Shown: in pieces, positions 9,483-30,163 of the stretch
How the letters are laid out: every line of letters begins with the position of its first letter
How positions within the stretch are numbered: the first letter of the stretch is position 1
Source: a virus
Taxonomy: Duplodnaviria; Caudoviricetes
IMG/VR virus record: IMGVR_UViG_3300030376_004920
Location: 1 to 31,280 of that record
Strand: one strand, 5' to 3'
DNA length: 31,280 bases
The notes under the pieces: model-generated
Databases searched by the model: none
Told to the model about the DNA's origin: nothing
The model's input: the letters and a program-made list of their open reading frames with translations, nothing else
Made by a program: the position numbers and the translations under genes

Positions 9483-10376
9483 TTATTCACCTCCTTTAAG
9501 AGTGTTAATTTCAGATTGTAAGGCTTCAATCTGTTCTTGTTGTTCTTGGATTGCTTTTGTTAATACAGCAGTCAAAGCTGAATAGTTTAAAGTCATTCCA
9601 TTTTCTAAACCTTCTGGAGATTGAAGGGGTTCAGTAATAATTTCACTTATAACAGGTTTTACTTCTTGTGCAATAAAACCAATCGTACTCTCGTCATTTT
9701 CTTTCCATTTAAACTTTCTAGGTTGTAGTGCTTTAACAGTATCTAAGCCGTAAGATATATCTTCTATATCTTTTTTAAATTTTTGGTCAGAAACTGTCTG
9801 ACCCCCATTAGTTGTATTTATTTGAAATTTAAGAGTTCCCCCACAATAAAACTCCCATTGAGTTCCATTAACACCTATAAAACTTGTTGCACTTGTATTC
9901 GTCATGGCAGTATATAAATTAGGCCCGTTTCCTTGAAATTGAAATGAAGTTCCCCCTGATGCAGAGTCATTAACATGAAGAAGATAACCAGGACTTGTAG
10001 TACCAATTCCAACTCTACCAGAAGAATCAATTCTCATTCTTTCTGAATTACTTGTGCTAAAAACCATAAAACCATTAGTTTGACTTCCTGAGTCAGGGTC
10101 TACATATATTTCTCCGACTGCATTAGTACCATTAACAAAAGTTAGTTTTCCACCGTCAGCACCAGCAGAAGCTGTTGAACCAAGATTTAATACTCCTCTG
10201 TTAGCATTACCAATAATACTTACATAGGTTCTATTAGCATTTCCATCACTTCTAACATCTCCTGAAGTCGTTCCAATTCCAACATTCTCGCTACTGTCAA
10301 TAGTTATAGCTGTAGCATCAGAACTGTCAGAAACTCCTGTGTCTAATAAACCTCTTGATACTTTTGTGATTGCCAT
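9483..10376 (-). CDS. Short tail fibre 3 with a C-terminal peptidase S74 intramolecular chaperone
   Basis: VGIGTT repeats, ERMRIDSSG, and SDQKFKKDI...GFIAQEV...KAIQEQ. Confidence 0.85.
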   Translation of the reverse strand: MAITKVSRGLLDTGVSDSSDATAITIDSSENVGIGTTSGDVRSDGNANRTYVSIIGNANRGVLNLGSTASAGADGGKLTFVNGTNAVGEIYVDPDSGSQTNGFMVFSTSNSERMRIDSSGRVGIGTTSPGYLLHVNDSASGGTSFQFQGNGPNLYTAMTNTSATSFIGVNGTQWEFYCGGTLKFQINTTNGGQTVSDQKFKKDIEDISYGLDTVKALQPRKFKWKENDESTIGFIAQEVKPVISEIITEPLQSPEGLENGMTLNYSALTAVLTKAIQEQQEQIEALQSEINTLKGGE

Positions 10377-11407
10377 TATTCTATTTTACCTTCTAATTCT
10401 TCTATTTTTGCTGATAATTCTTGGATTGCTTTTACTGCCATCCACATAATTTGTTGCTCTTTAACTCCTAACCTTGCTTCATCTCCTTCTCCTTGCTCAG
10501 TCACAAGGGCTGGAAAATCTGTTTGAATATCTTGTGCAACTACACCTAAATTTGTAGGCTCATTAGCTTCTTGTTCTTTGTAGCGAAAAGTTTTTAATTG
10601 TAATTTTTTTAGATTGTCTAATTGTGCTGTTGCATTACTTATGTCTTTCTTCATTCTTTCATCAGAATAATTAAAGTCATTAGTAGTGTAATTACCAATA
10701 CCACCATTTGACATTATTACAGCTCGATTAACAGCCGAACTATTTAAACTATCTCTGCATTTTAAAAATTCTGAAGTTCCGTTATTTGGAGTGTGTCCAA
10801 AATCTATTCGCACACCTTGTGGTGGACTGCTATTAGGATTAGAACCATGAAAAAATCGGCCTGCAAATACAGTTCCTGTGGTTTCTTGAGCTTCTAATCT
10901 TGCAGAAGGACTTGAAGTATTTATACCAACATAACCAGTTAGGAACTCATAAGTCGAAGCTGCAAACTCCATTTTTACATTTGCATTTCTTGCATCATTA
11001 ATAGCTAGTAACCTTAAATCTCCGCTTGTTTCTTCTATTTCTAAATTATTATCAGTACCAACTTTAATATGAAGTTTTGAAGCTGGACTTGTAGTTCCAA
11101 TACCAACATTTCCATTAGCCAACATATTTACAGTGGCATTACCATTATTAGTGAAAAGTTGTAAAAATCCAGATGTTGAAGAATTACCAATGTAAGAATT
11201 TTGTCCTGCTTGTTCTAAATGCAAATCTGCATCTGAGTTTTTTATATTTAATACAGGAGAACTTGATTTAAAAACTGTTAATCTTCTATTTGGACTAGAA
11301 GTTCCAATTCCAACATTTTCACTACTATCTATAGTAATAGCAGTAGCATCGCCATTATCAACAATACTTGGCGTACTTGACAGTTCTATAGGTATTTTAG
11401 TTGTCAT
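10376..11407 (-). CDS. Short tail fibre 2 with a C-terminal peptidase S74 chaperone
   Basis: Three VGI(G/N)T.SP repeats and SDERMKKDI...GVVAQDI...KAIQEL. Confidence 0.85.
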   Translation of the reverse strand: MTTKIPIELSSTPSIVDNGDATAITIDSSENVGIGTSSPNRRLTVFKSSSPVLNIKNSDADLHLEQAGQNSYIGNSSTSGFLQLFTNNGNATVNMLANGNVGIGTTSPASKLHIKVGTDNNLEIEETSGDLRLLAINDARNANVKMEFAASTYEFLTGYVGINTSSPSARLEAQETTGTVFAGRFFHGSNPNSSPPQGVRIDFGHTPNNGTSEFLKCRDSLNSSAVNRAVIMSNGGIGNYTTNDFNYSDERMKKDISNATAQLDNLKKLQLKTFRYKEQEANEPTNLGVVAQDIQTDFPALVTEQGEGDEARLGVKEQQIMWMAVKAIQELSAKIEELEGKIE

Positions 11408-13242
11408 TCTTCTAAGACCTCTATTCTAGTTTTTAGATCATCTATTATAGTTTGTTGTTCTTGGATTGCTTTCATAAGAGCATACATCATATCTGTTGTA
11501 TAAACTGTTTTTAAAGGTACGCCATCTTCAGGAGTCTCACCAAACCCTTCATTATTAACTAATTCTGGTGCAATAGCTTCCACATCTTGAGCTATAACTC
11601 CTAAACTTCTTTCTTTATCTTCTGGTTCATCTTTATAGTTAAAATATTTAACAGGTATATCGCAAATTTTTTGAAGATAGTTGCCTGAAACTTCTATGTT
11701 ACTTTTTACTCTTTCATCTGAAAGATTAGAATTGTTTGCTGAATAATTAGCAATACCACCATTATTAAAAACATAAAATCTGTAACCATTAAAAGTTGAG
11801 TTAAGATTGTAATGAAAATAATTACCATGTGCTGAACTAGACGTGTTTAAGACAAATCCCATATATGGTGCGGTGCTACTGTCTGATCTTATTTTTACAC
11901 CAACATCAGCAGTTATTGAATTGTTGGTAGTTCCTATTAATAATGCACCAGAAGAATCGATTCTCATTCTTTCTGAAGAACCTGTAGCAAACCTTATATC
12001 ATCTGCTCTTATACCGAATGCACCTAATGCACTTCCAGCACTATTGATAGATTGAAAACCTGCAACATCTCCAATTTCACCAATATTACCTGCAAAGGTA
12101 ATTCTTTTATCTGTTTCAATTTCTAAATCTAAAGCAGATGTTGGCGTTACGTTAATACCAACTTTACCTGTAGCATCTATAACAATAGCTTTACTTGCAC
12201 CTACTGATGTACCTCTACCAAGCGTAAGGCTGTCAGCAGAATCATCTAAACCTATATAAAAATCTTGTGTGTTGCCATCAAAAATAATCTTAATATCTTC
12301 TGCATCGCCATCTCCTATTGTAAAAACTGGTCCAGAACCTTTTAGTGTCATAGCACTATTAGTTAATGTTAGTACCTCAGTACCAGCAATATCCATTCTA
12401 ATAGTATCTTCATCAGAACTTTCTTCTACTTGTACCTTAGTATCACCGTCTGCATCTTTAAGGATGGCTGCAGTATCTATGTTAGTTTGAGTAAGTAAAA
12501 TAGCTTCAACTTCTACCCCAGTCGGTGGTGCCGTGCTAAAAGTTAAAGTAGTACCTGAAACACTAAAAGTAGATTTATTCTGATAGACACCATCAAAAAA
12601 TACCTGCACGCTGTTTTCATTAACAGGTTCGATAGGTAAAGTTAAAGTAGTGTCACTGTTATCTCCAGTCATAGTAGCAATCGCTACATTAGTAGCACTA
12701 CGTAAACCTTTAATAGAATAAGCAGTAACAACCCTACCAGAAGCAGGAGCTGTTGCTAAAGTTAAAGTAGTACCAGATACTGTGTAAGTATTGTGAGCTT
12801 GAAAAACACCATCAATAAAAACTACTAAATCATTTTCATCAGTAACCGCTTGATTTAGAGTAAATGCGGTGGTTGAAGCATTAGCGGTAGTAAAGATATT
12901 AGTATAAACGGTGTTGTCACTTCGGATGTGATCGATCGTACCAGAAGTAAATCTTAACTCTGCTTTATCTCCCGAATCAAAAGCTGTTGCAGAAGTGCCT
13001 TCTTGAGCTCGAACTACAGTTAAATTTATATTGCCCGAAGCTCCCGAACAGGTGGTAACTTTTACTATTTCGATAGCAGGTGAATTACCATCCTCTTCTA
13101 GGGTTAATAGAAAAAAAGTTCCTGCTCCTGCTAAATCTGCTACGGGAAATACACTACCATCCGTAACCGGAATCGTAGTAGTAGAGTTGTTAACTGCACT
13201 TGATAGTGTAGTCTTGGCATTGTTCTTAAAAACAATTCCCAC
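11404..13242 (-). CDS. Tail fibre 1 (612 aa): anchor domain, two ~70-aa repeats, S74 chaperone
   Basis: GTG start with GGAGG RBS. F.NNA.TTL...EIVKVT...LTVVRAQEGT anchor, twice VF.DGV.Q...VSGTTLT..TAP, and SDERVKSNI...GVIAQDV. Confidence 0.85.
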   Translation of the reverse strand: MGIVFKNNAKTTLSSAVNNSTTTIPVTDGSVFPVADLAGAGTFFLLTLEEDGNSPAIEIVKVTTCSGASGNINLTVVRAQEGTSATAFDSGDKAELRFTSGTIDHIRSDNTVYTNIFTTANASTTAFTLNQAVTDENDLVVFIDGVFQAHNTYTVSGTTLTLATAPASGRVVTAYSIKGLRSATNVAIATMTGDNSDTTLTLPIEPVNENSVQVFFDGVYQNKSTFSVSGTTLTFSTAPPTGVEVEAILLTQTNIDTAAILKDADGDTKVQVEESSDEDTIRMDIAGTEVLTLTNSAMTLKGSGPVFTIGDGDAEDIKIIFDGNTQDFYIGLDDSADSLTLGRGTSVGASKAIVIDATGKVGINVTPTSALDLEIETDKRITFAGNIGEIGDVAGFQSINSAGSALGAFGIRADDIRFATGSSERMRIDSSGALLIGTTNNSITADVGVKIRSDSSTAPYMGFVLNTSSSAHGNYFHYNLNSTFNGYRFYVFNNGGIANYSANNSNLSDERVKSNIEVSGNYLQKICDIPVKYFNYKDEPEDKERSLGVIAQDVEAIAPELVNNEGFGETPEDGVPLKTVYTTDMMYALMKAIQEQQTIIDDLKTRIEVLEE

Positions 13243-13259
13243 AGCGAAACCTCCTTAGC

Positions 13260-13685
13260 TTAACTAACTGTCACTGTCCAAGTGACTGTCATACTGTCTG
13301 ATGCGCCTTTGTTTACAACTGAAAAAACTGTTCTACATAGTAAAGTACCACCAGAACTAGCATTTAAAATACCAGCTTCGGTCACAGCACCAGTACCAGT
13401 TCCTGCTGGAAAACTAGCTACGTAAGTAACTACAGCGTTAGAAACGGTTGTACTTGTAAGAGCTACTCTACCTAACTGTGAACCTAGAGCAGTATCACTC
13501 GCAGCAGCGGCAGTACTTCCAGATCCAATAGCCATGTGTGACATAGCAGTTGCACTAGCGTCTTTTATACGAGAAGCGACATAACCCTTACCAGCAGTCA
13601 CAACTAAGTTATCAACTTCTTGTACGATTTTACCATTAAGAGAAATAGCTAATTTACCCTTAAGTTTTAAACCATCATTTATCAT
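13260..13685 (-). CDS. Tail structural protein (tail collar-like)
   Basis: NLVVT.G...A.R....MA.G.G.TAA..DTAL...TEAG..NA..GG.L..R.VF..VNK...D...VTW pattern. Confidence 0.7.
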   Translation of the reverse strand: MINDGLKLKGKLAISLNGKIVQEVDNLVVTAGKGYVASRIKDASATAMSHMAIGSGSTAAAASDTALGSQLGRVALTSTTVSNAVVTYVASFPAGTGTGAVTEAGILNASSGGTLLCRTVFSVVNKGASDSMTVTWTVTVS

Positions 13686-27695: not shown

Positions 27696-27723
27696 TAGAA
27701 AGAGGTGGTCCGAAGACCACCCC
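27696..27723 (-). terminator. Intrinsic terminator after the major capsid gene
   Basis: Minus strand GGGGTGGTC-TTCG-GACCACCTC-TTTCTA: 9-pair stem, C(UUCG)G tetraloop and a short U tract. Confidence 0.85.
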
Positions 27724-27731
27724 AATCTTAA

Positions 27732-28868
27732 TTAAAATGCGCAATCTACTCTGATTACACCAAAGTCTTCATTCTGACCAGAAATGTCAGAGTTGTAGAC
27801 TGGTTTTTTAAGACCCATGATCTTACCGATAGAAATACCGTTTTGGTTTCCATAGTCGAAAGTGTCTTCAACTATTTCAGGTAAACCGATATCTGCCATA
27901 GCAAGAGCTTGAGCTCCACAGAATAGGTTAGCAGCGAAGTCAACATCACTACCAGATCCACCTTTCTGAGTACCTGAGGTACCTTGAGAAGTGTTTGGTA
28001 CGTGTCTGAATTCGTGAACCATAACGCCGTCAACCATTAAGCTAGAAGATCCAGCAAATAGTTCGTTGTTTGGTCCTCTGATACCAGCGCTTCTTACGTT
28101 TGATAAGAAGTCAGAATCTAGTTTCAGATCAGCCATTACTTGTGGAGTAACAAAAAGATGATACATCTCTTCATTACCATTTCCTCTCATACCTCTAATG
28201 TATTGGTCTTTAGCAAAAGCTTTTAACTCAACAATAGTACTGTAAGTCATCTTGTCAGTAGCAGCTAAAGCAGAAGTATCACCAGCAACTAAACCACTAG
28301 TTGCGTCGACTCTTCTGTGTCTGTTAGAAGTAGGAGCAGTTACATCACCACCAAAGGCAAGATCAGACAAGTTAGAACCTGAACCTAATACTGGTCTAGT
28401 CGCAGCAGAACCACCGATGTTGTTGTTCTTTCTGTTGTAGTTAATACCAGCCAAGGTTAAGAATGCAACTTGGTCCATTCTATCTGCCATTGCGTATGCA
28501 AGTGCGTCTCTTGAGTGCTCACGGAAGTTGACAACAGATTTTTGATCCGCTAAACGACCAGAAAGTCTGTTCGCAAATCTTAATTGATCTAATTGTACAA
28601 CTATGTCGAATGCTCTTAATGCTTCTTCATTACCTTCAAGAGTATTGTCACCAACGACACCATCACCAGTCATGTCAGCTAAGAGTGTTAATACAGCTCT
28701 AGCTCCTTTTTCTGATTGAGTAAGTTCATTTATTCTCTGAACCATGGCGTTGGGGCCACTACCCGCAAATTGGTTAATGAAGGACATGTTTCGAGCTACT
28801 CGCCAAAAATCACGAGACCAGATAGTAAGCTGTTCACTGGTCAACGCGCTGAAATTTGTATTAGCCAT
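27732..28868 (-). CDS. Major capsid protein, N4-gp56/DUF4043 family
   Basis: L...G..GD..LEGNEE.L....I..DQLR.A...Q....NFRE.....L...A...DQ and L.CGAQAL...DY.N..G motifs. GGAGG RBS and a downstream terminator. Confidence 0.9.
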   Translation of the reverse strand: MANTNFSALTSEQLTIWSRDFWRVARNMSFINQFAGSGPNAMVQRINELTQSEKGARAVLTLLADMTGDGVVGDNTLEGNEEALRAFDIVVQLDQLRFANRLSGRLADQKSVVNFREHSRDALAYAMADRMDQVAFLTLAGINYNRKNNNIGGSAATRPVLGSGSNLSDLAFGGDVTAPTSNRHRRVDATSGLVAGDTSALAATDKMTYSTIVELKAFAKDQYIRGMRGNGNEEMYHLFVTPQVMADLKLDSDFLSNVRSAGIRGPNNELFAGSSSLMVDGVMVHEFRHVPNTSQGTSGTQKGGSGSDVDFAANLFCGAQALAMADIGLPEIVEDTFDYGNQNGISIGKIMGLKKPVYNSDISGQNEDFGVIRVDCAF

Positions 28869-28902
28869 TAGGCCTCCAAATAAAAAATTAATAAAATAAC
28901 CA

Positions 28903-29058
28903 ATCGCTATTTGGGGCGATATCCCGTATACCCTTTATCGTTGGGATACGATATCGTTAATTTAACGAGCACGACCTCGAACAGTTAACGTCGTTGTAGA
29001 CGAAAAAACGGTTTTTATACTGAACGACCAGTTGTTGGATATCGTTCCAACCAACGAA
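28903..29058 (-). ncRNA. Candidate structured RNA (multi-hairpin, likely pseudoknotted) in the capsid 5' leader
   Basis: Six stem-loops in the 212-nt scaffold-capsid gap, with complementary ACGA/UCGU loops and linkers. No family recognised. Confidence 0.6.
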
Positions 29059-29080
29059 TTCTTTAATACTATACTACTAT

Positions 29081-30163
29081 TTAGTCAAAGTCACCACGCA
29101 TTCTGCGTAAAGTTTCTTCTGGTAGTGCACCAAATTCATCATCAGACAACACATTTATATCTACTATTTTCTTATTTTTACTAGAATCACCTTTCATTTC
29201 AGGTGGCTGTGCTTGTGAAGCTTCTACTTTTTTCTGCACAGTAGCCTTTTGTTTCTTTTCTTGCACTGCTTTTGTTAGTGTAGGTGCAGGATCTGTTTTT
29301 GGTTCATCAGAAGTCTGTAAAAGTTCTGGTTTTTTAGTTAGTAAAGTAACTTCAGTGGCTTTTGCTAACGAGTCTGCAGCACCATATCCTTGATATATAA
29401 AAGCATCACGCAGTTCCATGACCTCTTGAGTCAGTTTTTCATCATATGCCTTACTTTTTTCATCAAAAACAGGAAAAACTTCCATTATTTCTGAAGCTTT
29501 TTTAGCTAACTCATGTTGTTCTCTGTCTTGTTGGACAGTTTGACCCATTTGACTCTGCATTTCGCTCATTAACTGAGTTCTTTCTGCTTTTCTTATCTCA
29601 TTTCTAAGAACAGCGGCTTTTTCAGTCTCACCATCTAGTACAAGTTCTTGGTATTCTTTTTCTTTACCTACAAAATCGTACTCTGGAACCTCTGGTGCGT
29701 CTGTTTTTTCACCCTCTATGTCTTGTAGTCTTTTTTGCATCTCTTTGTTCTTTGCAAGAACTTCATCAAGACGTGATTTAGGCACCATAGGAGCTTTTGG
29801 CTCTTCTGCTTCTGCAACTTCTGCAACTTCTTCTACCTCAGGTTCCTCTGATCCCTCCTCCACTGCTTCCACAGGTTGCTCATCATTTCCCGGAACGCTC
29901 TCTTGTTCTGTTTCTTCTGACTCACTTTCTGTTTCTTCTGCAACAGGTTCTTCGACTTGTTCCTCTGCAACTTCTTCTGTTGTTTCTTCTGCAACAGGCT
30001 CTTCTTCTGTTGTTTCTTCTTCTGTTTCTGTTTCTTCAACCTCTTCCTCCGTGGTTTCAAAGTTCATATCTACTTGAAAAGGTTTTACATCCTCTTCAGT
30101 TTTTGCATCAGCACCCGGCATGCCGTCGAATACTAATTCATCTGTACTTTTATCTTTAGCCAT
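29081..30163 (-). CDS. Capsid scaffolding protein
   Basis: Between portal and capsid genes. Glu-rich N-terminal region, PMVPKSRLDEV, coiled coil, and C-terminal ...LSDDEFGALPEETLRRMRGD. AGGAGGT RBS. Confidence 0.8.
   Translation of the reverse strand: MAKDKSTDELVFDGMPGADAKTEEDVKPFQVDMNFETTEEEVEETETEEETTEEEPVAEETTEEVAEEQVEEPVAEETESESEETEQESVPGNDEQPVEAVEEGSEEPEVEEVAEVAEAEEPKAPMVPKSRLDEVLAKNKEMQKRLQDIEGEKTDAPEVPEYDFVGKEKEYQELVLDGETEKAAVLRNEIRKAERTQLMSEMQSQMGQTVQQDREQHELAKKASEIMEVFPVFDEKSKAYDEKLTQEVMELRDAFIYQGYGAADSLAKATEVTLLTKKPELLQTSDEPKTDPAPTLTKAVQEKKQKATVQKKVEASQAQPPEMKGDSSKNKKIVDINVLSDDEFGALPEETLRRMRGDFD

Follow-up and report, generated by a model that had tools for sequence, protein, structure and literature searches.

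Covariation among related capsid gene leaders points to six back-to-back pseudoknots in a marine phage, a possible stabiliser of the capsid mRNA

The window analysed here is a stretch of 31,280 nt of phage DNA (Caudoviricetes) with a G+C content of 37% and a podovirus-like late region that includes a P22-like portal. Wherever a source was recorded for the sequencing runs containing this stretch, it was a seawater sample. On the minus strand, a gap of 212 nt (28869-29080) precedes the gene for the major capsid protein and, as the original prediction had stated, is the largest non-coding gap of the late region, the runner-up measuring 53 nt. The gene on its upstream side encodes an acidic protein of 360 residues; a family search returned no match for it, and its position suggests that it is probably the scaffold. 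The features that frame the gap are as follows.

29081..30163, minus strand: gene for the acidic 360-residue protein, between the portal (PF16510) and capsid (PF13252) genes
29066..29094, minus strand: predicted sigma-70-type promoter, proposed by eye (-35-like box 29094-29089, 17-nt spacer, -10-like box 29071-29066)
28873..28902, minus strand: unpaired U/A-rich tract and Shine-Dalgarno sequence GGAGG (28877-28873)
27732..28868, minus strand: major capsid protein gene (PF13252; TIGR04387, N4-gp56 family; phrog_334)
27702..27723, minus strand: strong terminator-like hairpin, directly 3' of the capsid gene

The last codons of the 360-residue protein gene overlap the predicted -35 box, and transcription is predicted to start near 29060; a consensus promoter scan of the window did not detect the proposed promoter. 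At the other end of the capsid gene, a hairpin of -17 kcal/mol or stronger lies 3' of the stop codon in 42 of 43 related loci. The closest cultured relatives by capsid sequence are the Pseudomonas phages KPP25 and phiR18 (54% identity), the Aeromonas phage phiA008 (46%) and the Acidovorax phage AP1 (44%). Related prophages (51-55% identity) sit in gammaproteobacterial isolate genomes, which is a weak hint that the host of this phage possesses RNase E and ribosomal protein S1; the labels of the metagenome-assembled genomes that contain relatives conflict with one another, so that no host can be assigned. Elsewhere in the window, three tail fibre genes follow one another at 9483-13242, each with a C-terminal Peptidase_S74 chaperone domain, and contigs of relatives extend over the gene at 13238-13625 (phrog_5417) in four of four runs, but not over most of the 15-25 kb region.

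The original prediction described six hairpins (H1-H6) in this gap and proposed that they form a chain of pseudoknots or loop-loop contacts outside the named RNA families. The coordinates and sequences of all six hairpins are exactly as claimed, and so is the count of ten ACGA or TCGT motifs in 28938-29057: dinucleotide shuffles contain 4.1 on average, none of 2000 reaches ten, and 257 of 260 fixed 120-nt tiles hold two or fewer. H5 stands in part, since its CCC/GGG core is conserved as a continuous helix, but its middle pairs are present in 33/75 and 31/75 relatives in the two registers examined. Nested folding gains only modestly over shuffled sequences (z of -2.2), because a nested model leaves out crossing pairs.

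Homologous leaders were collected from 80 capsid-linked IMG/VR loci and from 120 loci found by DNA pattern alone. All 117 pattern loci that could be read stand 5' of a capsid start, the remaining three being too short to tell. Together the two sets gave 184 complete gaps, 113 of them distinct and 75 at below 97% identity, along with 51 representatives at below 93% (mean identity 70%). The 75 leaders were aligned by sequence only, assuming no structure, and covariation was scored with a G-test against a tree-based null. A second count used 24 diverse leaders picked by hand; the crossing helix of the second unit was omitted from it, as the linker aligns poorly.

Of the 13 highest-scoring column pairs, 12 are base pairs of a model in which 29057-28903 (minus strand) is a run of six back-to-back H-type pseudoknots, each hairpin loop being paired with a neighbouring linker. 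Eight pairs outscore all nulls, namely 29054-29045, which is a crossing pair, and seven pairs within the stems of H1-H3. In the 24-leader count, 96.8% of the cells are paired and 23 of 43 pairs have changed on both sides, while the crossing helices alone contain 37 compensatory cells, compared with 11.7 in shuffles. The structured RNA claimed by the original prediction is thus borne out by pairs kept across the 75 leaders, and its hairpins are best described as halves of the six pseudoknots. Furthermore, at 38 core pairs G-U occurs in 63 cells and A-C in 8, a bias that points to the sense strand as the structured one. The array is compact, with 140 of its 155 nt inside pseudoknots, spacers of 1-6 nt and 7-10 pairs in each unit; many of its bases hardly vary, namely the CG/CG stem ends, the ACG motifs and the loop adenines. 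The six units are listed below.

PK1, 29034..29057, minus strand: 5' linker 29057-29054 with loop 29045-29042; the stem of H1 crosses this helix
PK2, 29009..29032, minus strand: H2 stem; loop CG with a CG 3' of the A-rich linker; of the six crossing helices, the weakest
PK3, 28981..29002, minus strand: H3 stem; loop with the linker immediately 5' of H4
PK4, 28954..28979, minus strand: H4 stem; loop 28974-28971 with 28957-28954
PK5, 28931..28951, minus strand: CGU 28950-28948 with loop ACG 28941-28939, crossed by CCC/GGG, the same plan as PK1
PK6, 28903..28925, minus strand: 28925-28923 with 28915-28913, crossed by H6

The crossing pairs differ in how they are documented. In PK1, the pair 29054-29045 is formed in all 72 gap-free rows by four pair types. 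The weaker covarying pairs lie in PK3, PK4 and PK6: 28997-28980 (E 0.15-0.23) is paired in 75/75 leaders, with the crossing register shifted by one base in the window's own subclade; 28972-28956 (E 1.3-2.1) is GC in 66 and AU in 9 of 75; 28923-28915 (E 2.1-3.2) is GC in 36, AU in 35 and GU in 4; and the PK6 stem pair 28920-28903 (E 0.1-0.15) is GC in 52 and AU in 22 of 75. Compensatory crossing pairs are therefore found by counts in PK1, PK3, PK4 and PK6. The crossing CGU/ACG of PK5 is invariant in the 75 close leaders, and its case comes from the distant relatives L372-L375 (capsid identity 68-73%), in which the stem has changed on both sides. As for PK2, its stem pairs rank among the top covariation scores; its crossing helix, whose CG core has changed on both strands in 2 of 75 leaders, was identified by eye from lists of loops and linkers and carries no statistical score.

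Near the gene, the arrangement may not be a single one. At 28927-28925 there is another invariant sequence with which the PK5 CGU could pair; that pairing would give the long form of H5 and cut the first stem of PK6 to two pairs. A two-state fold, in which one CGU is shared between two ACG partners, is thus possible from the alignment, and by eye the same arrangement could also form in L372-L374. Of the 75 leaders, 61 have A-A and 11 have U-U at positions 28942 and 28934, beside the PK5 stem, a non-canonical covariation that is perhaps a symmetric non-standard pair. The third loop of PK6 accepts insertions (in L372, where the insert is hairpin-like, and in L055) while the flanking pairs are kept. 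By eye, PK1-PK2 and PK5-PK6 share a common plan, which suggests that the array grew by duplication.

The same alignment bears on the contacts originally proposed between the loops of H1 or H5 and those of H2 or H4. In 96% of cells the loop cores are indeed complementary, and contacts that are transient or between molecules would be compatible with the alignment. However, neither possible scheme (H1-H2 with H4-H5, or H1-H4 with H2-H5) contains a single compensatory cell or any excess over shuffles, against the 37 cells of the local crossing pairs in the same 24 sequences. The loops covary with the adjacent linker and never with another loop: where G28972 has become A, in 9 of 75 leaders, the linker base 28956 always changes with it, and no matching change is seen in the loops of H1 and H5. 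With no covarying loop-loop pairs, a kissing-loop RNA or a multimer of the phi29 pRNA kind is very improbable. Likewise, the suggestion that the motifs are protein sites on double-stranded DNA, or simple palindromes, finds no support, because the crossing pairs persist and covary as the sequence changes. Recoding between the scaffold and capsid genes was also rejected: the gap length modulo 3 is 0, 1 and 2 in 20, 21 and 34 of 75 leaders, the upstream frame is open in 2 of 75, and there is no conserved joining frame.

The distance from the end of PK6 to the AUG is 29-41 nt in the 51 representative leaders, in which the tract is 85% U+A, and in the window the ribosome site lies 24 nt past the last unit. 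No other tile of the window contains two or more pseudoknot units. Contigs that join the leader to the coding region were found in seven of eight runs, six of them RNA by their records and the seventh of uncertain type; since contigs carry neither strand nor true ends, they signal presence in RNA libraries only. Among those listed, upstream ends lie at 29033, 29044, 29045, 29093 (X10), 29135 (X2) and 29407 (X1), the last three beyond the predicted transcription start. The contig pieces listed for four runs include none over 29220-29700, but neither this gap nor the sparse cover of 15-25 kb counts as evidence, as the leader was present in none of the DNA controls. In the distant relatives L238, L241 and L385, a 22-codon Lys/Pro-rich reading frame separates the scaffold gene from the leader, ahead of the capsid promoter, and the ends of basic reading frames are also seen in L234 and L381.

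Shorter arrays lie 5' of the capsid gene in more distant phages, including the cultured Acidovorax phage AP1, and the number of units, the stem sequences and the kind of the last unit differ between clades. An initial pseudoknot detector lacked stringency, in that it reported five units not only in the window but also on its reverse strand and in 3 of 200 shuffles. With later detectors, which were tuned after the sequences had been seen so that enrichments are descriptive, at least two units were found in 21/21 marine, 26/52 KPP25-like and 20/42 AP1-like leaders and in 1% or less of shuffles; L220 and L240 were dropped from this set for misplaced or interrupted starts. In 28 AP1-like leaders selected by motif, a crossing pair again has the highest covariation score (E 0.00). 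Units are present in Paracoccus phage KLEP18-1 and Rhizobium phage RHph_Y1_10, and were seen by eye in Pseudomonas phage KPP25 and in phiA008. The strict detector gave no units in the latter two, the single KPP25 match of a detector proved to be a terminator hairpin, and a relaxed rule gives one KPP25 unit, 9 nt after the -10 box (L205). No such unit was found in Bcep22, LASTA or Eline, which have proteobacterial hosts, and relatives at 28-33% identity from bins labelled Negativicutes are mostly almost gapless. Of 96 distant leaders, 18 carry a canonical promoter at the position of the one proposed here, and none was found in the other 78; in 12 of the 18, the first unit begins 7-14 nt after the -10 box, compared with 11% of random anchors. 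In the AP1 group, the array lies close behind the upstream stop codon.

Several of these loci carry other genes near the capsid gene. In Bcep22 (L366:363-557) and LASTA (L370:342-551), both without units, a CsrA-like gene lies directly 5' of it. HNH endonuclease genes lie at or just upstream of it in KLEP18-1 and RHph_Y1_10 (L365, L367), and by eye the end of an HNH-like reading frame precedes the capsid match in L220. In MW202615.1 (L084:1552-3388), the capsid match is split in two with a PacI-like endonuclease gene between the parts, which suggests an intron in the capsid gene.

In line with the original proposal, the element matches no Rfam family: Rfam 15 gave no matches in the window at the gathering threshold and, at E up to 10, one chance snoRNA match outside the element. 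Tandem small H-type pseudoknots in variable number occur in the 3' upstream pseudoknot domain of tobamoviruses, the FMDV 5' UTR and tmRNA. Those arrays belong to eukaryotic virus genomes or to a stable RNA, whereas the present one lies in the mRNA leader of a DNA phage, and the Rfam search found no sequence likeness between them. The preQ1-I riboswitch, whose expression platform lies over a ribosome site or terminator, was likewise rejected: no Rfam match appears up to E 10, the loops are 6 nt long, and the ribosome site lies well beyond the last unit. One published candidate is DNAVirus_3698 (Fremin et al. 2023, PMC10690425), which is listed as an automated 85-nt candidate with 180 marine and freshwater sequences and only two covarying bases, and which in 37 cases has a capsid_maj_N4 gene no more than 25 nt away. 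It thus adjoins capsid genes of the family seen here and, compared by description rather than by model, may overlap the array; the excerpted text contains no description of a capsid pseudoknot array, and that of the Minerva preprint does not mention the capsid. In the literature searched, which broad searches covered in part, no published description of such an array was found. Single leader pseudoknots, and tandem pseudoknots elsewhere, are already known, and what appears to be new is the six-unit array in a capsid leader.

Of the roles first suggested, stabilisation or translational control of the capsid mRNA is favoured as likely, and kissing loops and pRNA-like multimers are not. Comparison of the aligned leaders shows the pairings, the strand, the constant position of the array 5' of the capsid gene and an unobstructed ribosome site; from position and precedent, we give a probability of about one half to the reading that the six-pseudoknot leader stabilises a long-lived capsid mRNA while leaving its ribosome site open. 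The predicted promoter would start the message 2-7 nt ahead of PK1, so that the path from the 5' end would be nearly all coaxial helix, offering little single strand to cut and impeding 5'-end-dependent scanning by the host RNase E. The pseudoknots and the hairpin 3' of the stop codon would cap the capsid cistron at both ends, and the cistron would outlive its neighbours and give the excess of capsid protein that the head requires, while S1 and the 30S subunit would bind at the U/A-rich tract. The precedent comes from engineered obstacles in E. coli: in the excerpted text of PMC9943677, H-type pseudoknots in a 5' UTR upstream of the protected region impede RNase E scanning, longer ones more so, stem-loops and kissing loops do not, and the composition of the obstacle matters little. 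Those were single transplanted viral or telomerase pseudoknots, whereas the array described here is natural, conserved and six units long. Stabilisation would explain why pseudoknots rather than hairpins have been kept, as pseudoknots, unlike hairpins, block scanning, and why the units abut while their number and stem sequences vary, as would be expected of an additive obstacle.

Nevertheless, several observations weigh against stabilisation. Units of 7-10 pairs fall in the least protective range of the same study, in which the shortest and least protective pseudoknots, according to the excerpted text, had 8 and 11 pairs (PMC9943677). The AP1-group array lies near the upstream stop codon, the X1, X2 and X10 contigs run past the predicted start, most distant leaders (78/96) lack a canonical promoter, and Bcep22, LASTA and Eline lack units. 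Moreover, stabilisation alone leaves the near-invariant bases unexplained, and these may mark a binding partner, although minor-groove contacts of the loop adenines could also explain them.

Such a partner is central to two less likely readings. The array might be a translational enhancer, its pseudoknots offering multiple S1 sites and a 30S standby beside the U-rich tract, with stabilisation secondary. S1 binds H-type pseudoknots, and the standby site of tisB consists of a 5' pseudoknot with a single-stranded stretch, both of which are present here (PMC7708055, excerpted text); a conserved host partner could also suit a CG/CG-plus-adenine unit that recurs among alpha-, beta- and gammaproteobacterial phages. 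The single tisB pseudoknot, however, opens a sequestered ribosome site (PMC7708055), whereas the site here is free and long-range standby would be unneeded, and the array keeps to the predicted 5' end while its distance to the AUG varies widely (14-100 nt in distant clades, by a loose detector). We therefore regard this role as unlikely. Slightly less likely still is an operator or switch, in which a scaffold, capsid or other phage protein binds the unit and tunes capsid synthesis, with PK5/PK6 toggling with the long H5. PK5-PK6 is both closest to the gene and most invariant, its CGU having two invariant possible partners, and the plan of a pseudoknot followed by an A+U-rich tract is that of the gene 32 leader of T4, T2 and RB69, in which the tract runs to the ribosome site of T4's most stable message and gp32 binds the pseudoknot (PMC3014915, excerpted text). 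In that leader a single pseudoknot is bound by the gene's own ssDNA-binding protein, whereas here six, which are not known to have a binder, precede a gene that encodes a major capsid protein rather than an ssDNA-binding repressor. The top covarying pairs include none with the Shine-Dalgarno sequence, clades differ in the kind of unit that comes last, and a search of the neighbouring genes found no RNA-binding family.

The remaining readings are improbable. In HK022, putL, a structured RNA that acts on the nascent transcript, likewise immediately follows a phage promoter (PMC9378689, excerpted text), and an antiterminator of this kind would let the polymerase pass the terminator-like hairpin behind the capsid gene into 25 kb of downstream virion genes. 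Yet put is one V shape of two stems and ~70 nt that binds RNA polymerase (PMC9378689), and no such fold is found here. Instead, there is a chain of 2-6 interchangeable units, of variable overall fold and with no Rfam match. Still less probable are released units acting in trans as decoys, for example by mimicking the type III antitoxin ToxI, a tandem-pseudoknot RNA of near-identical repeats with a toxin gene behind it. The size of the units and the tandem H-type plan are alike, and the capsid transcript would be an abundant carrier; however, the units are not repeats in sequence, the downstream gene encodes the capsid protein and no toxin gene is nearby, Rfam has no match, and the RNA contigs run on from the leader into the gene.

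If the capsid mRNA is indeed stabilised in this way, the leader would be a natural case of RNase E protection by stacked pseudoknots rather than hairpins, so far shown with engineered reporters, and a large group of podoviruses would boost its most-needed protein without an extra gene, the array being a compact and tunable mRNA stabiliser. More speculatively, and with the odds against it, such leaders might constitute a modular, family-wide class of phage RNA, made of 2-6 mini-pseudoknots that repeat one unit (CG/CG stem ends and an adenine-bearing third loop) and recognised by one conserved partner (S1, RNase E, the scaffold or the capsid protein, for instance); the number of units would then be a dial for capsid output, and the PK5/PK6 switch would couple it to head assembly. 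The cultured relatives AP1, KPP25/phiR18 and phiA008 make the stabiliser reading testable in the laboratory.
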